In this document: positions 14,801 to 62,030 of the stretch, in pieces | How positions within the stretch are numbered: the first letter of the stretch is position 1 | Layout: every line of letters starts with the position of its first letter | Source: an uncultured Clostridia bacterium | GTDB taxonomy: Bacteria; Bacillota; Clostridia; Christensenellales; UBA1242 | Direction: 5' to 3' | NCBI GenBank assembly: GCA_945919375.1 | Contig: CAMEJD010000002.1 | Span: 35,643-99,642 of the forward strand | Length of the DNA: 64,000 bases | Program-made: the position numbers and the translations under genes | The notes under the pieces: model-generated | Database searches by the model: none | What the model saw: only the letters and a program-made list of their open reading frames with translations | Told to the model about the DNA's origin: nothing

Positions 14801-16512
14801 GTTGATTGATATCTTTTGTACCCCTTTATCTTTCCAAGATAATTAAACCCATCCGTTATTGTTTTTCCATTGTTTGCGAATGTAACTGTGTATGCTTCGC
14901 CATAAGGTCTATAGAAAAGTTTTAGGTTCTTTCCAACCTTTTCACTTATTAAATTAGAATAATCTTTATTGTAATCGTCATTACGTCCCCCAGATATTGT
15001 CATAGTTATATAATTGGATATTTCAAACTTTGACCCTGTTGAACTTTGTTCCTTTCTATTTGAATTTACATAAGTTTTTGCATTACTTTGTATGGCAACA
15101 AGTTTGCCTCTCTCGGATGTTTCAATACTATAATATCCTTGCAAATTTTTTGGAACATAAAAGTTTTTTGAAGCCGTGTTATACGATGTTTCGGGTTGAT
15201 ATTGACCCGACGAAAAAACTCCGTCAGCACGAAATGTGATTTTTGAGCCACCTTCTGTAAGCAAAATTTTAGAATTTTCATCAGGACTCACAATGAATGT
15301 ATTATTATTGTTTCCACCGCTTGTTCCATTATTAAAGAATGAACCCCTTTGCGCTATTGCTTGCCTTTGGTCCGGAACATTTCTTTTATATCGTACCCAT
15401 GTGAACACATTATTTGTATCTGCTTTTATTTCCTCACTGGTGTTTGTTGTTGTTGATGTATCATATGTAACCACCTTCACAAATGATGTGCTACTACTTG
15501 AAAGTGTGTACTCGCCTGTTGTCTTATTAAAAACGTTCTTTATTTTTTCTAATATTATATTCCCAACACCCTTAAGGACTTGCCTACCTGAGCCTTGTGA
15601 CATCATACCATTAGTGTCTTTTATCCAATATGAAGTATTGTCAACCTTTTTGTATTGGACAATTGCATTTATTGTTTCCTTTGTAAATCCTCTATAACTA
15701 TTATACAAAGGTAAGCAACCAATTGTGTAGCAATCCGTTACATTGGCAATCCCGCTAGCATACAAGCCAGAATATCCACTTGATGTTATGCCCGCAAAAA
15801 ATGAATTTTTTATATTAGGTTCATATGGATATTCATCTTCATCATAACTATACCCTGCATACCCAACAAGACCGCCAACATATGAAGGATATGCCCCATC
15901 AACTCTTGCATAAGAATAGCAATTTGACATCGTTCCAGAGACGTCAAGATCGCCAGCAATCCCTCCAATATTGGCATTTCCATTTGTTTTAACCGAACCA
16001 AATGTTGCACAATCAAAAATATTTGTTTCTTTTGCACAACCAACAAGTGCACCAATACTTACTGCAGTTGAATTGTAATCAATGTTCACCAATTTAAGAG
16101 TAAGGTTTCTTATTGTTGCACCATAAGTGTAACCAAAAAGTCCAATATGACTAAGGGATGGCGTTAAATCACTCAAAATTGTAAGTCCAGAAATTGTAAA
16201 ACCACGACCATCAAAAGTTCCATCAAATGGGTTTGTTGAACTACCAATTGGCGTCCATGCTCTTCCAGACAAATCAATATCTTTTGTCAAGTAAACAATT
16301 TTGCCCGAGTAACTTGTTCCACCATTTACACTATCCGCAAAATTTGCCAGGTCTGTTTCAGATGTAATCTTTTCTATATATCCCCCGGCAGCATAAGCAT
16401 TTTCTGTTTTTTGCATTGATGCATTTTGCAAAAAAGCACCCCCAAAACATGCGAATGTCAAAAGCACAAATGCAATACTTAAAATAAATTTTGAAATGTT
16501 GGACTTTTTCAT
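1..16512 (-). CDS. Giant secreted repeat protein (putative adhesin). The N-terminus and first 5,504 codons are in the window; the C-terminus lies beyond the window start.
   Basis: Absent from the supplied ORF track because there is no in-window stop. On manual reverse-complement translation, ATG is at 16512-16510 with AAGGATGGG just upstream. No tta/cta/tca was encountered in plus-strand triplet phase 1,4,7... down to position 1; individual lines were re-checked triplet by triplet. N-terminus MKKSNISKFILSIAFVLLTFACFGGAFLQNASMQKTENAYA looks like a signal peptide. It is followed by PFDGTFDGRGFTISGL and IGALVGCA / IGGIAGDL / VGGLVGYA (GLUG-type beta-helix turns, about 15700-16390), GY(T/A)FxGW repeats and many KxYDGT / ITPxEL modules. 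Confidence 0.9.
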   Translation of the reverse strand, partial: MKKSNISKFILSIAFVLLTFACFGGAFLQNASMQKTENAYAAGGYIEKITSETDLANFADSVNGGTSYSGKIVYLTKDIDLSGRAWTPIGSSTNPFDGTFDGRGFTISGLTILSDLTPSLSHIGLFGYTYGATIRNLTLKLVNIDYNSTAVSIGALVGCAKETNIFDCATFGSVKTNGNANIGGIAGDLDVSGTMSNCYSYARVDGAYPSYVGGLVGYAGYSYDEDEYPYEPNIKNSFFAGITSSGYSGLYASGIANVTDCYTIGCLPLYNSYRGFTKETINAIVQYKKVDNTSYWIKDTNGMMSQGSGRQVLKGVGNIILEKIKNVFNKTTGEYTLSSSSTSFVKVVTYDTSTTTNTSEEIKADTNNVFTWVRYKRNVPDQRQAIAQRGSFFNNGTSGGNNNNTFIVSPDENSKILLTEGGSKITFRADGVFSSGQYQPETSYNTASKNFYVPKNLQGYYSIETSERGKLVAIQSNAKTYVNSNRKEQSSTGSKFEISNYITMTISGGRNDDYNKDYSNLISEKVGKNLKLFYRPYGEAYTVTFANNGKTITDGFNYLGKIKGYKRYQSTSTTSSSSNQSSINSADKAADKSVSLTGELSKNYFFTESSGVTQDCVINYYFDNVFNVTIGDGRAEARFEALFQKWYSNYSESGGTKVAVGVMLYEKIADKGIGYNGKIIKDIYEGDELYPFWSDFACGGITEKVDNGDAVTYFQPTSGGLAPNGGLGRWKANSLEWYPIWRAKNQTITIVTNSLKNSKNEEINTVDSIQNKNGGTLTSSNNGMWKLNTTTSTTPYTFNVVQKGGHKLKSVVLTMKIGNQSQEFTIDDTTKDFDYYGCQLSYNANENRYKVKSRFRYSLSQESGNYVFDFETLIGIEKIEFNFQKYEYDALVKTNIKSLINGYNEAPITIKNKNITRDNGVRLSEILANGTNLQDNEKLFSVNETILIKDIKVKQGYKLYSIVLPTETLSKNTIGITKSDIKQSADGSYSVELTLNSIGAKALYVDDIVIIFNIDRIGKDFTFSLNDVDINNDDWKNFEFGINISVDGAKTDRSIEPRKMSQLNTSLLTDDEVTLTLNGLPYNIRLSASDITVKGIRDGYIVGAGSEPNSFVISNIIVDENAGEYSIGIDCSVPKVDLSIINQSIANISGQETVKVLSTKNATVPYGSILAVTKDAGSDKLIVSIKNEAQRINEVFNYDLDSKIIEQLSILFENGQASNIKITSNSVVDWKMYLTYSNLSKYDTSDTYKLYLKYTTRAISVHTGDALIKNASTTIDNFTLDTSDNQIAGSVDTVLADNKLGYKFLGFYVVQKDSNGKVLGDTFASTLYSGNTSFKYSLNTQSANATQITIEKSTLYIVRVYEAKMLTAIFDKTLKDEVTNQNLNVTLSSTEKVEIEYNATMLASKLPNVQIEGMYDFVCWQSGTVQINNREFRTDEKYVIDDNNNTVTFKIKANPTDVNLTLYSDSNTQFSTITISYGTTDYSKLPQPSKFGYTLAGWKYMYKDSDGEVNKSKDGQIYVTIQNGKIVQNSCKKFDIQSKTVDFVAVYDANIISNIIFRAGGINNEGKFVSGQKEYTAQVMFGTSNYQSELFNLTTFVPTWQTDYATYEFAYFIFNGNKNKIFDPNSTDEARRYVIQSNEISGEMVFTAYYKVVDFVTPTVVGNESSWTYDAQSRSLSIDFAGKQNTNVLTYSYAWYKDGKTLAGQTDVILDNIKNVVDSGKYTCKIKVNAQNEYAFTESPIEKETQEFLITISPKEIWFTQNGEITTELVKVFDNTNKINSTVDYGGICGSDSITVIAIYDNVNVGTNIPMTITITSIGSTTDVRNYTYPTNITGTITPYELNFVLKNNSNNYIVKNGEDNLQINIKEYYTIASDDSSFIQKYGFAIDYQLKTSQNIIGGYSFESQNANKILLTFSLKSGNQNNFIGKVNDDFFIKESDENSITISIKVLSNDNKSNEQVDKSLAYISANSIISSDGDKDHIFNINNNNSSNITIIEKRDYLLRNPNINLKLIINEQSKDYGYIYWIESWQVLCDGNIVDNNFADNSNITYTIENGSVKQIIINCYITTLSSVEYDYNLADGENLDDKVSSTKFAYAKPISYSIANYNAKFPIPTRDGFDFVAWTNGTTNVTNSTIWDKKYTKLTAIWQLQDIAVDNGNVKENFVYDSVKHTYTFTITNSNTKAIEYTYKWSSTAKIAGEQADSTLRVKNVKNSGVYTLTITATNKGLSKSLTRVVDVTITPYELLKTNIEILKQYDKSADMSTMMLDGVSTEKVYITGSYYDKNAGALLNKSSIKYVVKNGDVEIESQYNDNYNLDLSKISDQSKIVAKDISINFNDSSKVFDKLPLQVTGEFNEKNINFNYTIKTAKVINNILTECGDVGTYNQQNGNLKIEIKNELLSNFNITLSGTLTINYKSISNVDVEWVGDRNVVFDGKQHTLTLSDEFKDAVESYKYEKDNVTLSSLPITVGEYKVIAKFKENCGYNVQEEIQATLNISQRILNITYDSSNGKIEKYYDSTNVVTKDISQFNIETIVSGYEPTFVYNYRTVNAGENIAIDILLDENSENNKNYILAFPNGTIYGTINKVSVDVVVSGVSKQYDGTNIFEVNSDNIQVTGLVTGEDVDGSVNFIAKEVARYTNHNSTLEINKDALLFGNKVYSTNYEISSFAYDIEIIKAKLVLACSPTSPYTYNGLAIDIKYELTRSDNIKNASLPNSLEKVYYIKNGSSYEQINYQPLQVGDYQIEFRLSASDEINFEIISTQTQFNYTIIKRNLSIRFQTEYAYTGNKITYKVDKAQDDIYILSKDIADNTLGAGDSISWNFVTTGKDCGTYYVAQRDFVNPAEITIYKDGEDYTRNYEIIIHAEAQIIIKQAGIDRSQVIISSSQNEYNAQTHSLTFSVNGAIEDFTYKSIKRSGVLVQGEENIKYAGEYALEIELQNYKIANNKPFTYTITQRDVDLDLLEISKVYDGTIDVEDTDYKFKADKNICKEDENLAYIEATYDNKNVGEKKKIKFVLKSGNPLIENSYNLLTTFGFGDITKLDQTISLKTYSKFYDGKTVEIDISNFTPTELENREILSGKVLINIKDVGEYDISTNTFDLSKLKIILASGTSEGLDNYNLSFVGTLEIKPALVTVNVKYLQYVYNAKEQLPTFEESIYDSKGEIVDDFEYKVDYLQNNVSVTPINAGEYNIKISLPENSNYRFVRIDNGQAIQQKELIFNETLKIAKRKIAIDVRDTINRRYKDGINATYQVEAKDIIDPTAERTEGLLSIHKLVATLSTNGSVAKTYQVNGLPNNLVFDNSSEIYIKSLAITQMKDDVTQNYSIEYLTCTIIISNTSEEFDTEALESLVYNGKDKFASGEVYVTFLIDGTEHRFDVNNNTYNGQTIISDFTYNNTRTDKIINAGSYSVRLQISVQGFNPIDTTFTFEVKQKEILVVDCNTSKEYDSTSDVLGNLTSQDICSKDGNIDDVTIVGNYYNDNGDIVNTIGNDYVIKFTISGQDSSNYVIDNLNLKGEIKARKISLTIKDGYVLTFNNKVQYIDYENLTMTAGSVVSGQTLAGRIKVNNQNAGTYDLNLSNIDITELKVKKDENDFTSNYEFIFAGVVTINSKNVDVTVNPFNLEYNGTVQTIDEYLTFDSLEEELQDVAKTALTVSYDKEVVDAGDYVATVSSNTNNFVFNVLGYNENKIEFTVQKRDISFTLGNIQKSYNPTSDHRSKIEPTSVIGLIAGQELKGEYRLSKVGLNVGTYTQDPNDNKDGYIIFENLEIIAKGENILDKNYNILAQFGTIEIIPFKISKGDAYLSQTQVVYSKTEAIDSLAFTFFDANKQLQTITTQNTELGTISLVEDSAVNVGTYHIKVSIKNCELVDGDEYEFEIIPFTITEIDYVSQKEYDATSSVINSIGSKTLTSSQVFAGDSIEIEGNYVDRDNIAVKNASQDDYSIIFAIKNADTFPAKNYMLNVTGNGKITQRVITLNVNKELTYKSSGEYSIPYKPENFTMVGTLVDGQTLEGIVKFTKQDTLGVIDLTQIDLSGLTVIDGESINQTSNYLFRLDGKVSVVKSQITIDFSDIANTYIYSNSIVQVNPIIAFADVSNGDTLPTFVYNYKSQEYDSEDAPKNVGNYTFTVLLNSTFYEFATSNTFAFEITPYTFVVNDADVPTDRFSKNFNNIDPELSFTMTTPLNELINLYFTRTLGESVGVYDIQLQNWDNKNYTVTLESGKGLFTIKKASSTTVTILATAKNINLLQKQYDTQNIGSVDVTLLDYEASGETLIGTITFEAGVNVGSYQVESWTLSSSNFEQFNLISEVEYQIKQKDIVLKGENLDKPYDKSTKLYGTITILDASNIELDESIYHLSAYGQYADSMVSDNVNIVVNLAGESPSNFNVTNTLSGKITKRNVKVVPNQGQEAIYGTNNLDILYSLEDLDTTDFNGDINSEVTGNLYIDFLAGETKYVVGNYQIKSNITSNNFNLSFDDGVQFTITQKELTISNSKNFIKEFDGDNIVLGDFTIESGLISGDVVEISAKFYNDKLEEDSSVATDKIVIFTLSGTDGKNYFASNVKGSITNKLVKLNFVYNFDEKSIINPNLIEDNETSSFDLIYDKKIGDTNTYMPQPRHEGYTFVGWYFDKEYTNQVKLDTMIDSSNWPIDEVEKSAYAKWEIKSFDVKIVNVTKVNGIYSDDASLQGGTTITVDGKYNYYSTVALNNVATPKNGYVFVGFSDDINASVNDDFINNGYTVLAKDNVIYAKFDPKTVMLTLFANEGQFTNSQKWTFESGNTLAIVEVDFNSKLSDYGITIPDVSRDGYAMSGWEDKNGADVLFDANTILGESYFPKITLYVKWTPRNYKLVLNANGGVYSNFDSNIWTVEERDENGNVIKVSKNVAYNSKLGELIEPTKKGWTFDSYTNSISTEFVFKQLGDLTSDAQYTENNYVLTIISKHHDIKVEIKNKDNVLISNYSLTAGNSDRLTIDVMTTYNATITATDTMGYIFKDWTSTYNLTDSQSATIQILEFMQDETLTANYDFKENTITLKVNDKTKGYVYSGEYSTKDVGEITFTAKTESVVNLTAMSLEGYQLSGWLVDSNGINFNLSGSDIDAIRELSGFICDITITVNFEPKPVNITLIADEMKGAITIDGVINNVYSYTYGALVDSPFTFIVTANHGYSVDTNTANWLFETTSTNKGDFAIRENGNVYTITFTKFYENGTINIPFTTNSYNVKFVAVYRNENTFNRDLDADNLVTLQRSGQSDVVLNSNSPYEAIYKTQVKLIPRLDIQEGYTFSSWSKSGSSEYMLSSLEGLVASYDDNSIDLEIIDDITVYLIYTINTYTIKFSTNDYQKGNITYNDGIPQTNFAITVRYGYNAQKVEAQNSEHFVFEKWVKVVDGVYQDYSTDEILQLTNVKSDMEFVAIFKGQSIVITVKLVLPEEEILEPVTDFGKLEITENAVTKLIRTETQTNAIVYEISTLASEVVTLKLLEENGFVLANYNSTDNIITLSNILESTEVIVSL
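2800..11280 (-). repeat. Coding tandem array inside the giant ORF: roughly 25-30 beta-rich modules of about 85-100 aa of YDG/MBG-like type. Boundaries are approximate.
   Basis: Repeated pattern I(T/S)Px(E/K)(L/I) ... K.YD(G/S/K)(T/S) ... G(L/I)V.G(E/D) ... N(A/V)G.Y ... NY. Anchor motifs: KVYDGT ~7600-7617, KQYDGT ~8704-8721, KEYDST ~6170-6190, KEYDAT ~4830-4850, KPYDKST ~3510-3550, KEFDGD ~3010-3035, KQYDKS ~9730-9755, KYYDST ~8950-8975, KFYDGK ~7335-7360, KQYDTQ ~3750-3775. Confidence 0.55.
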
Positions 16513-16738
16513 AATTAACCCATCCTTATTATTTTCAATATTATTATATATTTTTATTCAAATAAACACAAGCAAATAAACTATTTTTTAGAATAAGTAA
16601 TATATGTAATATATTAAGGCAACCTTTTTGAATAATCAAAAACAAAAATTTGAATATTTTTTTAAATATTTGCTTTTAATCATAAAAATTATTTTTATTT
16701 TTTTTTATTTTGTGGTAAATTAAACATAGGAGTATTTT

Positions 16739-24394: not shown

Positions 24395-26470
24395 TTAGTT
24401 GGATTTTTTACGTTCTCCAACAATTTTTTCGGTAATTGATTTTGGAACTTCTTGATATTTAAGTGGTTCCATAACAAATGTACCTCTTCCTTGTGTTTGA
24501 GAACGAAGGTCTGTTGCATAACCGAACATTTCTGCAAGTGGAACTTCTGCTCTAACTCTTTGATATCCTGGGATAGAGTCATTTCCAAGAAGTATACCAC
24601 GTCTTGATGTCAAGTTACCCATAACTGTTCCAAGATAATCATCTGGAACATCAACTTCAACCTTCATAATAGGTTCCAAAAGCACTGGGTCAGCTTTTGC
24701 TGCACCTTCTTTAAATGCAAGGCTTCCTGCGATTTTGAACGCCATTTCACTAGAGTCTACATCGTGGTAAGAACCATCAAATACAGTTGCTCTAAAGTCT
24801 GTTGTTTCATAACCGGCAATAACACCATTCATTCTTGCTTCATCAATACCTTTGTTAACTGGTTGAATAAATTCTTTTGGAATTGATCCACCAACTGTTT
24901 TATCAACAAATTCATATCCTGAACCTGGTTCAAGTGGTTCAAACTTAACCCAGCAGTGTCCATATTGACCTTTACCACCAGATTGACGAATAAATTTACC
25001 TTCTGCTTCAACAGTTTTTCTTATTGTTTCTCTGTAAGCAACTTGTGGTTTACCTACATTTGCTTCAACTTTGAATTCTCTAAGCAATCTATCAACAATA
25101 ATTTCAAGGTGAAGTTCGCCCATACCAGAAATAAGGGTTTGTCCTGTTTCTTGATCAGTTTGTACTCTAAATGATGGATCTTCTCTTGCGAGTTTTGCAA
25201 GGGCAAGAGCCATTTTTTCTTGCATATCTTTTGTTTTTGGTTCAATTGCAAGTTGGATAACAGGTTCTGGGAATTTCATACTTTCAAGTTGAATTGGGTG
25301 AGCTTCATCACAAAGTGTGTGTCCTGTTATTGTGTCCTTAAGTCCAACAATAGCAGCAATATCACCTGCTTTAACTTCTTGAATTTCTGTTCTGTTGTTT
25401 GCATGCATACGAATAAGTCTTCCAACTCTTTCGGTTTTTCCATTGTTTGCATTATAAACATATGAACCTGCTTTAAGTGTTCCGCTATATACACGGAAGA
25501 ATGTCAATGAACCAACATATGGGTCAGTTGCAATTTTGAATGCAAGACCTGCAAGTGGTGCATTTGCATCTGGGTGTCTAAATTCTTCTTCGCCTGTTTC
25601 TGGGTTAATTCCTTTAATTGACTCAACATCTGTTGGGCTTGGCAAATAATCAACCATTGCATCAAGAAGGTTTTGAACACCTTTGTTTTTGTATGATGAA
25701 CCACAAAGCATTGGGGTAACTTTCTTTGCAATTGTTGCCTTTCTTATTGCCTTTTTAAGTTCGTCGATACTAATTTCTTCTCCAGCAAAATATTTCTCAA
25801 GCAAAGCATCATCAGTTTCTACAACTGATTCAATAAGTTCTTCATGACGTTTCTTTGCTTCTTCTTGATATTCAGCTGGGATTTCAACTTCGTCCAAGAT
25901 TTTTCCCAAATCATCTTCTGGAATATATGCTTTCATTGTCAAAAGATCAATAATACCTTTGAATGATTCAGCCATTCCAATTGGCATTTGAAGTGGGAGT
26001 GGTTTTGTGCGAAGTCTATCTCTTACAGACTCAACACATTTGTCAAAGTATGCATCATCTCTATCCATTTTATTAACAAAGATGATTACAGGGACTTTGC
26101 ATTCATTTGCTTGACGCCAAACAGTTTCTGTTTGAGGTTGAACTTTATCTCTTGCAGAAAGTACCAAAACGGCACCATCAAGAACTTTTAATGAACGCAA
26201 AACTTCAATTGTAAAGTCAACGTGTCCCGGTGTATCAATAATGTTTATTTTGTGACCTTTCCAATGGCAAGTTGTACAAGCAGAAGTAATTGTGATACCT
26301 CTTTCTTGTTCTTGTTCCATCCAGTCCATTGTTGCAGCACCATCGTGAACTTCACCAATTTTGTGGTTGATACCTGTATAGAAAAGAATTCTTTCGGTTG
26401 TTGTGGTTTTGCCGGCATCAATGTGCGCCATTATACCGACATTACGAGTTAACGCTAAATTCTCGTCCAT
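24395..26470 (-). CDS. fusA: Elongation factor G.
   Basis: 691 aa. Motifs [23 protein letters not shown] and NKMDR. RBS AAGGAGAAAA. Confidence 0.98.
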
Positions 26471-26613
26471 AATTTTCTCCTTATTTTTATCTAAATAATT
26501 TTTTCTAAATTAAATAAAACTATTCGTTTTTTACTAAAAACGACAAAAACTATTTAATAAATATAACTCTCGAGCGAAATATTTATATAAATTTTAAAAA
26601 TTTTTATTTTGAA

Positions 26614-26641
26614 ATATTAAGTATTTTCAAAATTTTTTCAA
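26614..26641 (-). promoter_or_regulatory. Candidate sigma70-type promoter for fusA-tuf, downstream of the repeat array.
   Basis: On the minus strand: TTGAAA (26641-26636), 16-nt spacer, TAATAT (26619-26614). It lies about 140 nt upstream of the fusA ATG. Confidence 0.4.
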
Positions 26642-26683
26642 GTTTTATGCAAATTATTTTTTAATAACAAAAACTTGAATAGT

Positions 26684-27029
26684 GTAAATTTTTAATTTTT
26701 AACAAGAAGTGCTAGGCTCTATTTCAACTAGCCCCTTTTTGCAAAACTAAAAATTGTTTCTTGTAAATTTTTAATTTTTGTTAAGAAAGACGAGGCTCGC
26801 TTGATAAATTTGCGTAGGAGTTTAGTTCTATCTAAATGACTATGCAAATTTCGTCAAGCAGAAACAAAGTATCCAAAACAAAAACTTTGATTTACGTAAA
26901 TTTTTAATTTTTAACAAGAAGTGCTAGGCTCGACAAATTTGTTCACGCAGGAGTTTGCTGACGCAAATGACTGTGTGACGAATTTGGCAGTAAACGACGC
27001 AATTCGCAGTTAAAAATTAAAAATTTTAC
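26684..27029 (+). repeat. Array A of nested-hairpin elements: three head-to-tail copies in the rpsG-fusA spacer. Candidate structured RNA or REP/MITE-like element.
   Basis: Copies: A1 26684-26762 (central hairpin deleted), A2 26763-26895, A3 26896-27029. Each starts with gtaaatttttaattttt. A3 has outer arms gtaaatttttaatttttaac / gttaaaaattaaaaattttac and a core of aagaagtgctaggctcg ... cacgcag-GA-gtttgc-tgac-gcaaat-GA-ctgtgtg ... agtaaac ... cgcag. The right arm overlaps the rpsG stop codon (27026-27028). Confidence 0.7.
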
Positions 27030-27499
27030 CATTTGTAATGAGCAAAAGCCTTATTAGCTTCAGCCATTCTATGCATTTCATCTCTTCTCTTAATTGCAGC
27101 ACCTTGATTGTTATAAGCATCAAGTAATTCGCCAGCAACTTTTTCTTCCATTGTTCTTTCACTGTTTCTCTTTCTTGCGAATAAAACAATCCAACGAATG
27201 GCAAGAGTTTGTCTTCTTTCAGGTCTGATTTCCATTGGTACTTGGTATGTTGCACCACCAACTCTGCGACCTTTTGTTTCAAGAACAGGTTTAACGTTTT
27301 CAATTGCTTGTGTGAACACGTCAATTGGGTCTGAACCAGTCTTTTCTTTTATAATGTCAAAAGCACCATAAACGATTGATTGAGCAATACCTTTCTTTCC
27401 ATCATACATAACTTGGTTAATAAATTTTGTAACTAGTTTGTTGTGGAATTTTGGATCTGGTAATACATCACGTTTTGGCACACCACTTCTTCTTGGCAT
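27026..27499 (-). CDS. rpsG: 30S ribosomal protein S7.
   Basis: 157 aa beginning [18 protein letters not shown], ending ...AFAHYKW. RBS AAAAGGAGAA. Confidence 0.97.
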
Positions 27500-54168: not shown

Positions 54169-57100
54169 CTATCCCAATTTCTCTATTTTTGCAATTTTCT
54201 TTTTTAATGCGTTAATAACCTTTGTCTTGCTGAGCCACCAATCTCTGCTCCAAACTCTGTATATATTCCAACCACGACTTTGCATAAATGCTGGATGATA
54301 TACATCTCGCTCTAGTATACTTGAACTACTGTCAAATACTGAATAGTCAAATTCAATGCCAAGAATATACTTATCTTTTTTCTTGTTATATACTGCAAGT
54401 GGGAGTTTATAGTTTGCATTCCCAATGTTTCTTTCAACAGTATAACCTTCACCAATAAGCATTTCTTCAAGTTCGGCAACCATTTTTTCATTAAGGTCAA
54501 TAGGTGGTAATTGTTTTTCTGGGAGCAAGTTATCCAAAATTATTTTTGTTTCTATTTTGTTATTATTTGAAACTGCACGAACATATCTTAAATATTCTTT
54601 AAAGAGTTTTGGCCCAACATTTTTTGAACCAGTTACATTCAATTCTTCAGGCTCTATACTTGTTACAACATAAATTTTTTGCTTTGCTCTTGTTATGGCA
54701 ACATTAAGTCTGTTTTCCCCACCTTCATTTGAAAGTGAACCAAATCTTGCAACAACCTTGCCATACTCATTTTTTGCATATCCCGTTGAGAAAATAATTA
54801 TATCTCTTTCATCCCCTTGTACATTTTCAAGGTTCTTTACAAACAAACTTATATCTTCGCCATCTTCCTTTCTGTTTTGCTCCATCAAAAGTGCATTGTG
54901 GAATTCAAGGTCTTTTGATGCAAGTTTGTCAATTTCATCTTCAATTGCATTTTCTTGTTCAAGGTTAAATGTAATTATTCCAATACTTCCCGTTCTCTTT
55001 TTATCTTTTAACAGTTTACACAAAAGTTCAGCAACCGTTTTTGCTTCAACTTCATTTTTGGTGTTAATCCATTTGCCTTCAACTTTGATTCTTTCAATTG
55101 GAAGTTCTTTGTTATTTTTTGTAACATCCGGTGCAATTTGCAATTTCTTTGAATAGAATGCATAGTTTGAAAAATTGATAAGTGCTTCACTTCTGCTACG
55201 ATAGTGATATGTAAGGTTGCTACTAAAATATCTGCTTGTGGCAAGGTCCAACAAACTTTCAACTTCCAATGCGGCTTGTGTTGAATAGTCCATATCTTCC
55301 AAATCGTCATTTCCCATATATCTTTTTAGGAATGTTGCAGTTGGCCTTAATTGCTTACTATCGCCAGCAACAACAATATGTTTTCCACGATAAATGCATG
55401 GCAAAGTATTTTCAATAAACACTTGAGAAGCTTCATCAAATACAACATAATCAAACATTTCTTTTTCTAGTGGTAAAATTTGACTTGCAATTTCTGGGCT
55501 GAGCAAAAAGCATGGAAATAGTTTTAACAAATAATCTTTATACACTTGCATACATTTTCTTATTGGCCACAAGTTTTGTTGTTTTGAAATTTGATATAAG
55601 AAGTTTTTGCTTGTTTCTTGATTTTCCATAAAGAACTCTTTATATTCACTTGCATTCTTCTCATAACACAAGCGTTTGTCAAGTTCAAGTTGCTCTTGTT
55701 TTAGGCTTAGAATTCTGTTTCTAATATTAGAAAAGTCCGACAACTTTGACAAATCTTCTTTGTGTAAATCTTCTTGTTTGATTACTTCGTTATATGTCCT
55801 AAATACAACAATTTTGTCTACAATATATTTAAAGTTTTTATAGTTGTCACTATTTTTGTATGCAAACTTTAATATTGCTTTTTCTTGGTCAGTTAGTTCT
55901 TCCAAACAAACATTGATATCCCTTATTTCAACATATTCATCAAGTGCATTTGCAAGCATTTTTAAGTACATTGTATTTCCGCTTACTATATTGTCAAGTG
56001 TTAGCAAATAACCTTTCGGCTCAAGCACCTTTTGTAGCACATCATATCCTTGAATATATTCTTTTAGGTCTTTTAATGTTGCATCAAAAGTGCTTTCAAT
56101 TTCCTTTTCTATTTTGTTTGTTTTATTTTTTATAAATGGATACATAGGCAAAAGGATATGACTTGCATTAAGTTTGGCATAGAGTTTTGGATATCTTGTT
56201 GATGCAATGTATTTTGTCAGTGGGGAATAGTCAATTTCTTCACTTTCGTTATGTTCAAGATAGTATGAAAGCAAATCTCTTGCATATGGCCTTTTTGTCA
56301 TATCAAAAGGAATAAACTTTGAAGATATTACGCTTTTGATTAGATTTTGTGCTTGGCTTAATGTGTGAATGTCAATTCCGCTTTTTATGTAGTCAATAAG
56401 TGGGTTTATTTGTTTTTTCTCTAGGAACTTAAAATACAAATTATCTTTTTTCTTGTCTTTTATCAATCTTTGAGCTTCGCTTATTGTTGCAAAATCCATA
56501 TTCATTATTTCTTCGTTTTGTTGCATATTTTGGAACACTGTGTAATCTTTGCTGTTTTTTCCAATTATTTCACTATTTGCATACATTTGTTGCAAAGTTA
56601 GTCCGTACTCTCTTTGTGCAAACAAAACATCATTCATACTTTCAAGTTCACTAATCTCGGTGTCAATTTGTTCTTGCAAAGTATGATACTTGTCAAGAGA
56701 TGCTGTTTCTTCAATTTGCATAATATTTTCGTGTTCCAATTTTGCTTTTTGATAAAACTCTGCTTTTGCCTTGTCACTATCGGCAATAAGCATTGCCTTT
56801 TGATTTAGTGTGGCAAGTCTGTTATACACAACATCAAGAGCCGCTTTCTTTTGACTTACAACCAAGACCTTTTTACCTTTTGTAAGAGCATCAGTTATCA
56901 CATTTACAATTGTTTGGCTTTTACCTGTTCCCGGTGGTCCATATATTACCATATTTGAGTTGATATTAAGGTTTTTTATTGTTTCACTTTGTGCATAGTC
57001 AAGGTTGCTAATTGGGAACATATCTTGATTAACTTTTTTATTTTTCTTTGCAGATTTTGCAAGAAGTAATTCATCAATGGCAGATGTTGTAAGTTGCTTT

Positions 57101-57954
57101 TTCTCCAAAACTTCGTAGTCATTATATATGCTGTTAGTTAAAGGGAATCTCCCCAAAATACAATAGTTAAAAACTTCAAGACCGCCTTGTTTTGGGTCTT
57201 TGTCTTGAACAAAAGGAACAAAAGAATTTGATGTATTATTTGTGATATGTATATCAAATTTTTCCAAATAGTCAACAACATCTTGAACATTTTTGAAACC
57301 ATTTGATTTTAGATCATCAAAATCTGTTTCCATTTCATCAATATTTAATTTTCTTGCTGTGGCATAAGCGAACAAAAGAACCTTGTTAAACTTTATTGTT
57401 TCATTGCTCAAAAGTTCAATGCTTGCTGTTGTTTCATTTTCTATATTTATGCCAACTGGAAACATAACAAGTGGTGCTCTTACCATTAAATCTTTTCCGA
57501 TATAGCCTTCAACAAAAGGATACCCAACATAAAGTTCGTATCTCCCTGTTTCTCTTTCAAACTCTTCTATCTCTCTTTTTAATTGTTTTAGGCAATTTGT
57601 TTCATGAATCATCATTCTTTTTAATTCTTGTTTTTTTGCCCTTTCAATTTTAAGGTAGTCAGTTTTTTCTTCTCCATTTTCATCTTGATATGTTGTTTTG
57701 TATCTGTTTAACTTATCTTCAACATTAAGATTTTTGTAAATTAAATCTTTGTCACTTTTGCCAATGATTTCAAAAGTAAGTTTTTTGCCTGACCATAAAA
57801 AATCTACAAGCAAATCTGTCATTTTTTCATCGCCCGCAAAAATTTTACCAATATCGTAACTAAATTTGTTTGTCACTCTTTTTGTATAAAGACTTCTATT
57901 TTTTCCGCTTATTTCAATCAATCTTTGTTTGTAAAATTTGTAAATTCTGCTCAT
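54169..57954 (-). CDS. Large SF1 (Upf1/DNA2-like) helicase with a DUF4011-like N-terminus and a C-terminal restriction-endonuclease-like domain.
   Basis: Preferred start is MSRIYKFYKQ at 57954. N-terminal LIEISGKNRSLY and YELYVGYPFVEG...VRAPLVMFPV. Walker A VIYGPPGTGKSQT, Walker B VVFDEASQV, then VVAGDSKQLRPT, YHYRSRSEALINFSN, VQGDERDIIIFS and RLNVAITRAK. C-terminal ILGIEFDYSVFDSSSSILERDVYHPAFMQSRGWNIYRVWSRDWW. Confidence 0.8.
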   Translation of the reverse strand: MSRIYKFYKQRLIEISGKNRSLYTKRVTNKFSYDIGKIFAGDEKMTDLLVDFLWSGKKLTFEIIGKSDKDLIYKNLNVEDKLNRYKTTYQDENGEEKTDYLKIERAKKQELKRMMIHETNCLKQLKREIEEFERETGRYELYVGYPFVEGYIGKDLMVRAPLVMFPVGINIENETTASIELLSNETIKFNKVLLFAYATARKLNIDEMETDFDDLKSNGFKNVQDVVDYLEKFDIHITNNTSNSFVPFVQDKDPKQGGLEVFNYCILGRFPLTNSIYNDYEVLEKKQLTTSAIDELLLAKSAKKNKKVNQDMFPISNLDYAQSETIKNLNINSNMVIYGPPGTGKSQTIVNVITDALTKGKKVLVVSQKKAALDVVYNRLATLNQKAMLIADSDKAKAEFYQKAKLEHENIMQIEETASLDKYHTLQEQIDTEISELESMNDVLFAQREYGLTLQQMYANSEIIGKNSKDYTVFQNMQQNEEIMNMDFATISEAQRLIKDKKKDNLYFKFLEKKQINPLIDYIKSGIDIHTLSQAQNLIKSVISSKFIPFDMTKRPYARDLLSYYLEHNESEEIDYSPLTKYIASTRYPKLYAKLNASHILLPMYPFIKNKTNKIEKEIESTFDATLKDLKEYIQGYDVLQKVLEPKGYLLTLDNIVSGNTMYLKMLANALDEYVEIRDINVCLEELTDQEKAILKFAYKNSDNYKNFKYIVDKIVVFRTYNEVIKQEDLHKEDLSKLSDFSNIRNRILSLKQEQLELDKRLCYEKNASEYKEFFMENQETSKNFLYQISKQQNLWPIRKCMQVYKDYLLKLFPCFLLSPEIASQILPLEKEMFDYVVFDEASQVFIENTLPCIYRGKHIVVAGDSKQLRPTATFLKRYMGNDDLEDMDYSTQAALEVESLLDLATSRYFSSNLTYHYRSRSEALINFSNYAFYSKKLQIAPDVTKNNKELPIERIKVEGKWINTKNEVEAKTVAELLCKLLKDKKRTGSIGIITFNLEQENAIEDEIDKLASKDLEFHNALLMEQNRKEDGEDISLFVKNLENVQGDERDIIIFSTGYAKNEYGKVVARFGSLSNEGGENRLNVAITRAKQKIYVVTSIEPEELNVTGSKNVGPKLFKEYLRYVRAVSNNNKIETKIILDNLLPEKQLPPIDLNEKMVAELEEMLIGEGYTVERNIGNANYKLPLAVYNKKKDKYILGIEFDYSVFDSSSSILERDVYHPAFMQSRGWNIYRVWSRDWWLSKTKVINALKKKIAKIEKLG

Positions 57955-58350
57955 TCTAATATTTTTCCCTTTGCTTAAAAATATTAACATAAATATTAAA
58001 AAAAATAAAGATTAAAATTGAAATATTCTCATCTTTTTAATAAAATAATTGACAAATATATATTTTCATTATTTTTGAAATTTTAAATACTGCCATTATT
58101 CTCACATTGGTTTGTTCATTCAAAATTTTATTTAATGTTTTTTCACAAATTCAACACTTTTTGCAAAATTTTTTTTGCTAATTTTTAGTTTTTATATAAT
58201 CAATTATTTTATTTACATTTAAACTATTTTTTAATTGCATATTACTATCCCCCTCCTTATATTTAATGTCTTATCAATTTATCTATATCATTACATCTAT
58301 GTAATACCAATAAATTTATTACACTTTTGTAATATCATAATTTGATAGAA

Positions 58351-58569
58351 ATGGAGATTTGTAATACGAAAGTATTTAGAGAAAGATTAAAAGAATTATG
58401 GACAGAAAAAGGGCTATCAAGCCTTGAGTTAATTAAATAGTTACAAATAAGTAATGCTAATATTTGTAGATGGGGAATTTATACAAATGACATTAAATGC
58501 GAACAGTTAATTATACTCGCAAAGTTTTTTAAAGTATCAACAAATTCTCTCCTTGGACTTGAAAGTTGA
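58351..58569 (+). pseudogene. XRE-family HTH gene interrupted by an in-frame TAG.
   Basis: Translation is MEICNTKVFRERLKELWTEKGLSSLELIK*LQISNANICRWGIYTNDIKCEQLIILAKFFKVSTNSLLGLES*. The TAG at 58438-58440 falls inside the HTH. TAG is a genuine stop in this genome, since gpmI ends in TAG. Confidence 0.6.
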
Positions 58570-58571
58570 AT

Positions 58572-58895
58572 ACTCGCATAAAAAATCTGGCAGGAGTTTG
58601 GTTTCACCCAAATGACTGTCAGAGAGTTTTCCTAACTAGGTGTGATGCATTTATTTTAGGCACAAAAAACAAGATATACGAGACTCGCATAAAAAATCTG
58701 GCAGGAGTTTGGTTTCACCCAAATGACTGTCAAAGAGTTTCCCCCAACTAGGTGTGATGTATTTATTTTAGGCACAAAAAACAAGATATACGAGGCTCGC
58801 ATAAAAAATCTGGCAGGAGTTTGGTTTCACCCAAATGACTGTCAGATTTTTTATGCAGTAAACAAAGTATATCGCAGTTTTTTGTGCCTAAAATA
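58572..58895 (+). repeat. Array B of nested-hairpin elements: units of 111 and 112 nt, then a 101-nt final unit that completes the full palindromic element.
   Basis: Units begin at 58572, 58683 and 58795 with (a/g)ctcgcataaaaaatctggcaggagtttggtttcacccaaatgactgtca. B1 and B2 are near-identical by eye (a few substitutions and small indels). The complete element B3 is 58764-58895, with a 19/19-bp outer helix tattttaggcacaaaaaac / gttttttgtgcctaaaata. Its right arm covers the gpmI stop codon (58888-58890). Confidence 0.75.
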
Positions 58896-60390
58896 GTGGG
58901 GTAGACATATCTTTTGGTATATCCCTTTCAAGCCCCATAATCTTTAATATCGTTGGCGCAACATTACACAACTTACCTTTTGCGAGTTTTACATTCTTAT
59001 ATTTTTCACTAATAAGCCAAAGCGGTACTGGGTTTGTTGTGTGGCTTGTGATTATATTGCCTTTTTTATCTAGCATTTCTTCACAATTGCCATGGTCGGC
59101 TGTTATTATACAGTGTCCACCGGCAGTTAGACAAGCAAGCGCAATCGCATATGCACATTTGTCCACAACTTGAATTGTTTGTTTTGTTGCGTCCAAATTA
59201 CCAGTATGTCCAAGCATATCCGGGTTTGATAAATTAACCAAAATAAAATCATATTTTTGCGATGCAATTGCTCTTATCACTTCATCGGTTATTTCGTATG
59301 CTTTCATTTTGGGCGTTTTGCTAAAATCTTGCACATTTTCACTTTCAATAAGTTTTCTATCTTCATTTTTGTATGGTTTTTCTATTCCACCATTAAAGAA
59401 AAATGTTACGTGTGCATACTTTGTTGTTTCACTTGTGTGAAATTGTTTTAAGCCTTTGCTTGAAATTATCGCCGACAAATTATCTTCAATTTTTTCAGGT
59501 GGATATGCAATTAGTACATCCTTAAAATCAGCATTATATTCTGTCATACAACAATATGTTAAATTGTTTAGGTGTTTTGTTTCAAATTTATCAAAAGGCT
59601 TTTGTGTTAATGCTTCTGTAATTTCTCTTGCCCTATCGGTTCTATAATTAAAGAATATAACAGAATCGTAACTATCAATTGTTGCAGGCTTTCCGATTAT
59701 TGTTGGCAAAACGAACTCGTCATAAATTCCATCTTTGTAACTATCGTTAAGTGCAGTTACTGCTTCTTGATAGTAGTTGTCTGCTTGACCAAGGGTTAGC
59801 ATATCATAAGCCTTTTCAATTCTATCCCAGCGATTTTCCCTATCCATTGCATAAACTCTTCCACAAAGAGATTTGATTTCTGCCTTGCCTTGTATGTGCT
59901 TTTTAAGTTGCTCAATAAACTTTACACCACTATCTTTCAAAGTATCTCTTCCATCCATAAAACAATGAATATAAACATTTTTTATGCCTTTATTTTTTGC
60001 CATATCAACAAGTGCATACAAATGATTTATGTGACTGTGAACACCACCATCGCTAACAAGCCCCATAATATGCAAACTTGAATTGTGTGCCAAGCAATTA
60101 TCCATTGTTTTGTTTAGTGCCGAGTTTTTAAAAAAGTTGCCATTTGCAATTTCATTATTTATTTTTGGCAAATCTTGATAAACAATTCTACCTGCACCTA
60201 GATTCAAATGTCCAACTTCACTATTACCCATTTGACCATCAGAAAGTCCAACAGCTTCCCCACTTGCAAGAAGCTTAGTGTGTGGAAAATGTTTTAATTT
60301 GTCAAGATAAGGTGTGCCCTGCAATTTTATTGCATTGCCATACTTACTTTTATTTATTCCAAATCCATCTAATATTACTAACGTTACCAT
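58888..60390 (-). CDS. gpmI: 2,3-bisphosphoglycerate-independent phosphoglycerate mutase.
   Basis: 500 aa. Motifs ILDGFG, NSEVGHLNLGAGR, SDGGVHSH, NLSNPDMLGHTG and ITADHGN. Confidence 0.95.
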   Translation of the reverse strand: MVTLVILDGFGINKSKYGNAIKLQGTPYLDKLKHFPHTKLLASGEAVGLSDGQMGNSEVGHLNLGAGRIVYQDLPKINNEIANGNFFKNSALNKTMDNCLAHNSSLHIMGLVSDGGVHSHINHLYALVDMAKNKGIKNVYIHCFMDGRDTLKDSGVKFIEQLKKHIQGKAEIKSLCGRVYAMDRENRWDRIEKAYDMLTLGQADNYYQEAVTALNDSYKDGIYDEFVLPTIIGKPATIDSYDSVIFFNYRTDRAREITEALTQKPFDKFETKHLNNLTYCCMTEYNADFKDVLIAYPPEKIEDNLSAIISSKGLKQFHTSETTKYAHVTFFFNGGIEKPYKNEDRKLIESENVQDFSKTPKMKAYEITDEVIRAIASQKYDFILVNLSNPDMLGHTGNLDATKQTIQVVDKCAYAIALACLTAGGHCIITADHGNCEEMLDKKGNIITSHTTNPVPLWLISEKYKNVKLAKGKLCNVAPTILKIMGLERDIPKDMSTPLF

Positions 60391-61402: not shown

Positions 61403-61510
61403 TTCTAATTGACCTTATTTTTTTTAATAAATACCACAAAAATTACAAAAATATAAAAATGGCTTGTTAGTTTTATTGCATTATTGCAATTATTAGAGTA
61501 CTAATAATAC

Positions 61511-61623
61511 AAAATTAACCACAAGAACGCAACTCGGCAAAAATGCCACATAGGAGTTTAGTTTTTTCCCAAACGACTATAGTGGCATTTTTGACAGAAA
61601 CAGAGTTAATGTGAGTTAATTTT
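61511..61623 (+). repeat. Copy C of the nested-hairpin element family: a single, more diverged copy.
   Basis: aaaattaaccac-aagaacgcaactcg-gcaaaaatgccacatag-GA-gttt..aaac-GA-ctatagtggcatttttg-ac-agaaac-agagttaatgtgag-ttaatttt. Same architecture as A2, A3 and B3. It ends 5 nt before the stop codon of the 61629-62030 gene. Confidence 0.6.
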
Positions 61624-61628
61624 ATGTT

Positions 61629-62030
61629 TTAAATGGCAATAATTTTCACCCTTGCATATATCGTACTCATTCCCCCACTTGCTCTTACTATTATAGTTAT
61701 TGTCCCAGTTTTGTTAAAGGATACTCCACCCCAAGACGTAACTTGGGCAACTGTGTTAGTTTTGTCATAAACAAATTCAACATCTTGTGATGCAGTTTCC
61801 GGATATACTTTCCATGTTATTGTATATGTTTTTGTTTCTTCAAAATCTAGTACTATATATTTATAGTCGCCTTCACTGTCACTTGTTTGTTTTAGGTCTT
61901 GGTTTGTTATTTCAACTTTCTCGGGCTTTATTACTTCATTATAACTTAACATCTTCATACCAAAAAATCCCACAAAAGCAATGGATGCTATGTAGATTAT
62001 TAGTATTAAGATTACAACCGATTTTTTCAT
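61629..62030 (-). CDS. Membrane-anchored protein with a bacterial Ig-like (Big_2-type) domain.
   Basis: 133 aa with RBS AAAGGAAA. N-terminal TM helix VVILILIIYIASIAFVGFFG. The segment VYPETASQDVEFVYDKTNTVAQVTSWGGVSFNKTGTITIIVRA resembles the Big_2 pattern. Confidence 0.6.
   Translation of the reverse strand: MKKSVVILILIIYIASIAFVGFFGMKMLSYNEVIKPEKVEITNQDLKQTSDSEGDYKYIVLDFEETKTYTITWKVYPETASQDVEFVYDKTNTVAQVTSWGGVSFNKTGTITIIVRASGGMSTIYARVKIIAI

Follow-up and report, generated by a model that had tools for sequence, protein, structure and literature searches.

The REP, REPIN and BIME sequences of Proteobacteria are short, extragenic, non-coding hairpin repeats that are mobilised by RAYT enzymes and for the most part inherited vertically. 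REPINs are found whole, with the hairpin intact, or as halves, and also in ordered tandem clusters whose repeated units include their flanks; the halves, or singlets, are decayed remnants (PMC3116915). In the BOX element of Streptococcus pneumoniae, boxA-(boxB)n-boxC, the number of boxB modules varies between strains via slipped-strand mispairing or unequal crossover (PMC3049150). Here we analyse a tandem array of hairpin repeats in an uncultured Clostridia bacterium (Christensenellales), on a 64,000-nt stretch of contig CAMEJD010000002.1 (positions 35,643 to 99,642), hereafter the window, in which all coordinates are given. The array lies directly 3′ of the gene gpmI and comprises one complete 132-nt element preceded by two partial copies. 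It is probably a locally generated, unstable head-to-tail array that derives from one member of a large interspersed hairpin-repeat family, in which case the gpmI array is ordinary repeat instability. The behaviour published for REPIN clusters (PMC3116915) and boxB arrays (PMC3049150) closely matches that of the arrays described here, among them one at rpsG, a second locus in the window.

Tandem Repeats Finder (TRF) reports a single array at 58572-58844, with a period of 112 nt, 2.5 copies, 96% matches and a score of 502. It is by far the strongest repeat in the window, all others scoring 63 or less. The 49-mer CTCGCATAAAAAATCTGGCAGGAGTTTGGTTTCACCCAAATGACTGTCA is present in three exact copies, at 58573, 58684 and 58796, and was found 0 times in 100 shuffles. 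By the TRF result and the threefold 49-mer the locus thus consists of head-to-tail copies of one unit, as in a variable number tandem repeat (VNTR). An earlier note on this DNA had described a tandem amplification of three units starting at 58572, 58683 and 58795. The tandem structure is real, the exact 49-mers beginning one base later than those starts, which took in the preceding A, A and G. Unit 1 measures 111 nt and unit 2 112 nt, and the two differ, as few as the note had judged, by four transitions and one indel, all confined to a spacer of 30/31 nt. A 50-nt core (the 49-mer with its preceding A) and a 31-nt segment of left arm and P2 are identical in both. Expressed per position, the spacers differ at 5/30 and the element parts at 0/81 (Fisher p = 0.001).

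All parts of the array lie on the plus strand. B1 (58572-58621) is a partial copy corresponding to element positions 32-81, with its exact 49-mer at 58573-58621; it holds the end of the GGCTCG box, the 5′ strand of helix P3, the GA/GA loop, the P4 hairpin and 8 nt of the P3 3′ strand. It has neither left arm nor P2, and its left edge abuts the stop codon of an XRE-type open reading frame (ORF). Our covariance model of the family (CM R1, described below) gives a partial match for B1 at 58573-58639, model positions 32-98. The spacer x1 (58622-58651, 30 nt, GAGAGTTTTCCTAACTAGGTGTGATGCATT) lies outside the 132-nt hairpin; by comparison with other family members, its 3′ part may resemble the ..GTGT.. 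leader found there ahead of the left arm. B2 (58652-58732) spans element positions 1-81 and is cut off within the P3 3′ strand. It consists of the left outer arm (58652-58670), the P2 5′ strand (58673-58679), the box GAGACTCG and the 49-mer (58684-58732), and aligns to the full element by BLAST over positions 1-81 at 98.8% identity and by nhmmer over profile positions 3-82. It is followed by the spacer x2 (58733-58763, 31 nt), which carries the four transitions and the indel relative to x1, and then by the complete element (58764-58895), delimited by RNA and DNA folds and by CM R1. The 19-nt left arm, TATTTTAGGCACAAAAAAC, is present twice (58652-58670 and 58764-58782), so that it is recreated ahead of the next unit as the earlier note had proposed, and both copies are perfectly complementary to the lone right arm at 58877-58895.

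The complete element has a predicted RNA fold of -68.5 kcal/mol (z = -13.7) with helices of 19, 7, (3), 18 and 6 bp and a tandem GA/GA internal loop; its DNA fold is -39.6 kcal/mol, and the sense strand, that of the gpmI mRNA, folds at -59 kcal/mol. This agrees with the 19-, 7-, 18- and 6-bp helices described before, with two partial units in front. P1 pairs 58764-58782 with 58877-58895, P2 pairs 58785-58791 with 58867-58873, a short GCU/AGU helix pairs 58795-58797 with 58857-58859 and P3 pairs 58799-58816 with 58839-58856. The GA/GA loop is formed by 58817-58818 and 58837-58838, and P4 (58819-58824 with 58831-58836) closes an apical loop at 58825-58830. CM R1 matches the element over its full length (113 bits, E = 4e-32). 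On its right side it overlaps gpmI (58888-60390, minus strand), which encodes 500 aa with Metalloenzyme and iPGM_N domains and whose 3′ end lies inside the P1 right arm. This arm had been said to hold the stop and last two codons of the gene; it spans the stop codon (58888-58890) and the Phe codon in full, and the Leu codon by two bases. Taken alone, B1 and B2 still form the short GA/GA hairpin by folding, as had been claimed for these copies. The T-rich tract said to follow it amounts to 3-4 T, and no terminator was called there.

The number of units differs between close relatives at both gpmI and rpsG, which is VNTR-type behaviour and supports unequal recombination or the replication slippage that the earlier note had listed among possible origins. 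Compared loci are given here by number (L). Relatives whose GpmI is 94-95% identical share the gene order of the window. In L116/117 and L132-134 there is a single 5′-truncated unit that starts at element positions 33-38; L135 has a decayed B1, a much diverged spacer homologous to x1 and a full unit (~1.4 units); the window has B1, B2 and a full unit (2.5 units). The junction between the XRE-type ORF and B1 is common to L132-135 and the window and is therefore ancestral. Between the window and L135 the core near the gene is better conserved than the spacer, and L116/117 carry a core mutation, AGGAG to AAGAG. GpmI relatives at 80-85% identity have no element and carry ordinary terminators or a tRNA gene instead; likewise, L118-L121 have none at gpmI, and at this site L118-L120 carry ordinary bidirectional terminators.

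At rpsG the variation is more extensive. At least 22 contigs, drawn from different samples, encode one and the same S7 protein, and behind it the rpsG-fusA spacer measures 343, 424, 555, 635 or 720 nt. These lengths are accounted for by four modules, F, a't, B and A, arranged in five haplotypes: F-A; F-a't-B; F-a't-B-F-A, as in the window; F-a't-B-F-B; and F-a't-B-F-a't-B. The repeat junction falls at ACAAAAA, which is common to the flank F and the right arm of B, and the unit a't has internal deletions. In the window this sister array occupies 26686-27026 on the plus strand, as supported by CM R1 and by the strain haplotypes. It begins with a 34-nt 5′ fragment of unit A (26686-26719) and a spacer, continues with unit B (26765-~26890), whose right arm is decayed, and then repeats left-flank sequence ahead of a complete unit A (26898-27026). 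The right arm of this last unit reaches its end on the stop codon of rpsG. Identity is 70% between the two rpsG units and ~64% between the window's loci. The window has three such loci, the third being a degenerate member at 61502-61631 on the plus strand, found by nhmmer and CM R1 (52 bits, E = 4.5e-13). Its core reads CAACTCGG..ATAGGAGTTT..AAACGACT, and it adjoins a 133-aa ORF of the minus strand at that ORF's stop codon (61629-61631).

Arrays of this kind recur throughout the family, a check that the earlier note had itself suggested alongside copy-number comparison. A census with a profile hidden Markov model (HMM) gave 167 matches at 128 places, and at 31/128 (24%) there are 2-4 units on the same strand. 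The last, gene-proximal unit is 3′-complete in 28/31 arrays, and about half of the upstream units are 3′-truncated. Units of one array share a locus-specific left arm and are often 90-100% identical, against ~65% between loci. Therefore, arrays arise locally and not via repeated insertion. In young arrays the left flank and the 3′ portion of the element share 5-10 nt of microhomology at their junction, for instance ATATTTG in L046 and TTCAAA.TTT in L029. Several 5′ fragments end directly after GGCTC(G), the foot of the P3-P4 hairpin: the left unit at rpsG in the window, L035, L026 and three in L093. Moreover, in one L093 unit P3-P4 has been swapped for another hairpin between GGCTCG and CAGTAAAC, which marks a module boundary and also an expected site of slippage that deletes a hairpin. 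The L093 array itself (L093:2270-2770) has at least four units and lies downstream of an asnS-like gene; the replacing hairpin (GGGTCATCCGAGGTGGGCGCATAGTTACC..) is unrelated and recurs in the flank of L091.

These data are best accounted for by local slippage and unequal recombination in an interspersed hairpin repeat that resembles REPIN and BOX. A long hairpin would stall replication and the nascent strand could realign at short homologies; once direct repeats existed, unequal exchange of the RecA type could follow. At gpmI, the element would have been gained within the 94% clade, after its split from the relatives with ~85% identical GpmI. An early partial duplication would then have given the state B1-spacer-full unit that L135 retains. 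Exchange between the direct repeats of 49-81 nt would have removed a unit in the lineages of L116/117 and L132-134, and the same exchange would have added B2 in that of the window. The earlier note called the amplification recent. The three-unit state is derived, but spacers differing at 5/30 positions against 0/81 in the element parts, and a B1 that is perfect in the window but decayed in L135, point to homogenisation or constraint and not to simple youth: gene conversion or constraint may have kept the element parts identical while the spacers drifted. The element itself would be a non-autonomous REPIN/BOX/SPRITE-like repeat lodged in or beside the intrinsic-terminator hairpins directly 3′ of genes. 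It would be tolerated since the outer helix, or a duplicated target hairpin, preserves termination, and it may spread via a single-stranded intermediate of plus polarity.

We sought the extent of the family with a pattern, GGCTCG-N12-22-AGGAGTTT-N6-14-AAATGACT, scanned over one genome per species. This gave at least 114 loci, of which those listed are nearly all in Clostridia/Christensenellales metagenome-assembled genomes (MAGs). CM R1, built from 44 non-redundant copies, has at least 132 matches at E <= 1e-8 in 96 sources. The fold order is P1-P2-P3-GA/GA-P4, with a short type of ~125-135 nt and a long type of ~155-190 nt. In the alignment, 88.9% of cells are paired, against 63.4% in shuffles and 36-46% with slid partners, and 33/36 predicted base pairs show compensatory change on both sides; the alignment is fitted to the model, which somewhat favours the structure. 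The boxes RAGGCTCG, AGGAGTTT, AAATGACT and CAGWAAC are invariant in this set, three of them preset by the search pattern and CAGWAAC not, and the GA/GA internal loop is invariant too. At gathering threshold, Rfam 15 finds one tRNA in the whole window and does not match the element; at E <= 10 it returns for the gpmI and rpsG loci only spurious microRNA-precursor matches far below threshold. A scan of viral contigs for the family gave 0 matches, as did an exact 40-mer of the gpmI core in the JGI metagenomes, and literature searches on Christensenellales repeats and on terminator-duplicating miniature inverted-repeat elements gave general analogues only. This is apparently an uncatalogued, widespread hairpin repeat family of gut Clostridia. 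Outside Clostridia, CM R1 scores members at 66-86 bits in L041 and L082 (Geofilum, Bacteroidota) and in L011 and L025 (a Spirochaetales MAG), which suggests horizontal spread or bin contamination.

The element has a fixed strand and position relative to genes. Among helix mismatches read on the plus strand, G.T outnumbers A.C by 42 to 17 in P1/P2 (p = 0.0015) and by 76 to 11 in P3. The plus fold is the more stable strand in 44/44 elements, a difference to which the conserved core contributes part. The G.T excess and the stability of the plus fold thus indicate that a single strand of plus polarity, RNA or single-stranded DNA (ssDNA), is selected to fold. Mutational bias was rejected as a source of the G.T excess, since, going by the GC skew, C-to-T deamination of the leading or non-template strand would instead enrich A.C on the plus strand. 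The folded strand is antisense to the adjoining gene: the downstream ORF is convergent in 83/101 loci, and the left neighbour is co-directional with the right one in about 60%. In 32/47 copies of the short type the outer helix closes on the stop codon, which is placed between -18 and +5 nt relative to the P1 end and most often at -1; no copy has it at +6 to +60. The neighbours are housekeeping genes, among them rpsG (7 loci), rpsL, fusA, an asnS-like gene and gyrA. Outer P1 is locus-specific and may take in coding sequence (L035); its inner 6-7 bp (AAAAAC/GTTTTT) are widely shared and the rest is not. Many P1 outer ends have the layout A-tract/stem...stem/T-tract, so that the P1 arms may be the gene's own terminator hairpin, with the element seated in its loop. 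The long subtype has an extra hairpin and a 19-nt unpaired leader (..TGTAGACAAAT..) outside a shared 17-bp P1 (TCAGRCTG..). It is flanked by direct repeats of 17-27 nt that are terminator stem-loops, the left one keeping the A-tract and the right one the T-tract (L005, L009, L024, L030, L051, L068, L101 and L110).

A number of observations weigh against an unstable array derived from a mobile but otherwise inert repeat. The copy number at gpmI is read from a short-read MAG contig. Partial units could be under selection, as B1 and B2 have the same element parts but different spacers, which mere duplication of junk would not predict. Many short-type copies sit at orthologous housekeeping sites (rpsG in 7 loci, the asnS-like gene, gyrA), which agrees equally well with vertical inheritance, possibly with a host function, and with selfish spread. 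The several partial units that end exactly after GGCTC(G) are also expected of a site-specific nick, and selection on the antisense strand is not accounted for by a passive passenger of terminators. Short-type copies, including all those in the window, have no target-site duplication, and no empty site was recovered for a long-type copy. A search for enzyme genes, which covered the 8-kb loci around the repeats and the 64-kb window, turned up no gene for a transposase, a reverse transcriptase or a Y1/RAYT protein, either beside the 114 loci or among 20 window ORFs; clustering of 599 neighbouring ORFs gave housekeeping families only, with no transposase family enriched. What speaks for mobility is dispersal, flanking direct repeats and presence across phyla. 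Room for a functional RNA or an enzyme-driven process is left by four features: selection on the antisense strand, a GA/GA core that does not vary, partial units that are conserved, and no candidate enzyme in the regions searched.

On such a reading the family would not be passive but either a vertically persisting, REPIN-like replicator of Clostridia with a hypothetical single-copy enzyme, or a functional antisense RNA or ssDNA hairpin. The stop-codon regions of housekeeping genes would provide the sequence of its outer helix, which would stay complementary to them. The surplus left arms and GA/GA hairpins of arrays would persist because they have a role, such as that of alternative partners for the single right arm. 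We consider this unlikely. More doubtful is that the element is in particular a functional structured RNA of plus polarity, antisense to the 3′ end and stop of the neighbouring gene, with the array providing several RNA copies or competing left arms in the manner of a switch or decoy. Strong covariation around an invariant core that is not Watson-Crick paired, G.U enrichment on the plus strand, sites behind housekeeping genes conserved across species, partial units that keep their element parts as spacers drift, and a proximal core better conserved than the spacer between the window and L135 all speak for such an RNA. Against this, no promoter-like sequence is conserved upstream: beyond ~45 nt ahead of GGCTCG the sequences have nothing in common, and no sigma-70-like hexamers stand out (125/128 sequences, near-identical ones removed). 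In a consensus-based scan promoter-like sites are at background and 58200-59000 and 26400-27100 contain no plus-strand terminator, and the frequent co-directionality of the left neighbour (~60% of loci) leaves no obvious source of a plus transcript. Upstream units decay freely (B1 in L135, the a't deletions at rpsG), L116/117 tolerate AAGAG for AGGAG in the core, and Rfam holds no such family. The tandem small-RNA array proposed in the earlier note is not supported, on the same grounds: the consensus-based scans find no promoter or terminator per unit, no upstream sequence is conserved beyond ~45 nt, and B1 is decaying in L135. Somewhat less probable again is a site-specific nuclease or recombinase, HUH/RAYT-like, acting at the base of P3 (GGCTC|G) and leaving partial copies by one-ended, rolling-circle or Campbell-type events; this corresponds to the abortive mobilisation suggested earlier, a conceivable but unsupported origin. 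Independent 5′ fragments do end after GGCTC(G) (the left unit at rpsG, L035, L026 and three in L093), B1 and the truncated units of the relatives begin at element positions 32-38, the L093 replacement of P3-P4 respects the same module boundary, and a strand-specific fold is typical of enzymes that handle ssDNA. However, GGCTC(G) is the foot of the most stable sub-hairpin, where slippage deletion is expected anyway, other breakpoints are scattered (profile ends 65-124), the gpmI units break within the P3 3′ strand and not at GGCTCG, junctions carry microhomology, and no candidate gene lies near the 114 loci or among the window's ORFs. Moreover, by GC skew the folded strand in the window is the leading-strand template, which enzymes of the IS200/IS605 type are not known to use.

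Two further explanations concern the third unit and the complete unit, and we give both little credence, in equal measure. The third unit may be an assembly artefact in which two-unit strain alleles (B1-x1-full and B1-x2-full) were chained by the assembler. The contig does come from a short-read MAG, x1 and x2 differ by transitions and one indel only and have identical repeats on either side, a two-unit haplotype exists in L135, and there is an N-gap within the rpsG array of L126. A unit of 112 nt is nevertheless short enough for 150-nt reads or k = 127 to join x1-B2-x2. Moreover, arrays of varying unit number have been assembled independently at rpsG (many samples) and at 31 other places, and the rpsG array of the window is reproduced in the independent assemblies L124 and L131. 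Alternatively, the complete unit would be the intrinsic terminator or 3′-end stabiliser of gpmI, with the extra left arms as redundant 3′ halves in the mRNA. Here, selection for pairing on the antisense and not the mRNA strand is contrary evidence, as are the lack of a sense-strand U-tract after the gpmI hairpin (a GC-rich stem with a U-tract is absent on both strands) and the intact gpmI of L116/117 and L132-134, in which no P1 is possible without a left arm. In its favour are a hairpin that begins at the stop codon, the A-tract/GC-stem/T-tract layout of many P1 helices, the ordinary bidirectional terminators at this site in the element-free L118-L120 and a sense-strand fold that is still -59 kcal/mol.

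Slippage and unequal recombination in an interspersed repeat place the family next to, but not within, the described systems. Tandem clusters with flanks and decayed partial units of the REPIN type are found in it, and like REP, REPIN and BIME sequences it sits at gene 3′ ends and folds asymmetrically with respect to strand. It has no sequence similarity to them, its hosts are Clostridia, and no RAYT/Y1 gene lies within the 8-kb loci or the window. The Clostridia element is a single nested hairpin whose halves are not palindromic and which has no GTAG box; it has four helices, an invariant GA/GA loop and a locus-specific outer helix that closes on the stop codon. With BOX it shares a modular hairpin structure in Firmicutes, enrichment downstream of genes and the hosting of insertions by other repeats (PMC3049150). 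What is repeated in our family is the hairpin's 5′ part together with flank and not an internal 45-nt box, and there is no similarity to boxA, boxB or boxC. We know of no insertion sequence (IS) with ends that match. The SPRITE element, a pneumococcal repeat resembling a rho-independent terminator, is likewise an AT-rich stem-loop a few nt from the 3′ ends of coding sequences (CDS) and possibly a co-opted terminator. It is a simple 18-bp duplex with a U-rich tract, whereas the Clostridia element has conserved internal loops and an antisense bias, and its gpmI copy is followed by no U-tract. Repeats of the EFAR/YPAL type, from the Di Nocera group, are reportedly also AT-rich stem-loops near CDS 3′ ends. 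IS1397 and ISKpn1 are autonomous elements of the IS3 family that insert into the loop of palindromic units with 3-4-bp duplications, the target arms then flanking the insert. They are a precedent for the targeting of an extragenic hairpin loop; loop insertion in our family is suggested by the P1 layout only. Integron attC sites are imperfect hairpins of 60-140 nt right after a stop codon, with a folded (bottom) strand antisense to the gene. We rejected an attC origin: the R″ (RYYYAAC) and R′ (GTTRRRY) core sites are absent, the outer ends are locus-specific and the inner P1 ends read AAAAAC/GTTTTT, the neighbours are housekeeping genes rather than cassettes, and no integrase is nearby.

Other candidates were also set aside. 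A short conserved ORF from the AUG in AAAUGACU after AGGAG is not upheld, as its frames end at 3-24 codons and differ between copies. A type III toxin-antitoxin or riboswitch-like tandem was rejected because a convergent housekeeping gene lies downstream, and a retron because no reverse transcriptase stands beside any copy. A likeness to the hairpin ribozyme (CAGAAAC, UGAC.GUC) is vague; there is no Rfam match and the loop partner differs. The heptamer CAACTAG, common to gpmI and rpsG after the truncated units, is not conserved in L135 (TAACTTGG) and is probably coincidence.

A second small structured element, ..TTGGGGAC(A)CCCCG...GGGGAGAGGAAAA.., was seen nested in either orientation in the P3 region of family members: L002, L070 and L111 (about 89 nt inside the element), L019:5568-5680 and L086:3847-3975. 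A relative of it stands alone downstream of greA (L119/L120). In L034 (5934-6062) a right arm typical of the family (GGCAGGCTGA) contains the stop codon of a 449-aa ORF together with its last 4-5 codons, and the element appears to supply the C-terminus of this protein. Within the window, the left border of the gpmI array is the XRE-type helix-turn-helix ORF (58351-58569, plus strand), which runs convergently to gpmI and contains a single in-frame TAG (58438-58440). Relatives have intact alleles at this locus, and L116/117 have a non-homologous allele within flanks that are otherwise 86-90% identical. The ORF is divergently paired with a 1273-aa DUF4011/AAA_11/AAA_12/MTES_1575 helicase (54169-57990), and three TGTAATAYSA repeats near it (58300-58369) look like putative operator sites. 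Between the rpsG array and fusA, promoter-like hexamers (TTGAAA-16-TAATAT, 26591-26641, minus strand) suggest that fusA may be transcribed from a separate promoter, placed downstream of the inserts. At 1-16557 on the minus strand lies a giant ORF with a signal-like N-terminus (MKKSNISKFILSIAFVLL..), whose stop-free frame exceeds 5519 codons and continues past the first position of the window.

The gpmI array is usable as a strain marker, and it cautions that copy numbers read from short-read MAGs are uncertain. The family to which it belongs is a four-helix element of ~130 nt with strong covariation, more than 100 copies and a fixed antisense orientation, absent from Rfam. Mobility of this element would widen the reach of REPIN/BOX-type biology to Christensenellales and suggest a hypothetical mobilising enzyme; if it is functional, it would be a new class of RNA associated with 3′ ends. 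Either way, the covariance model is ready for annotating these genomes.

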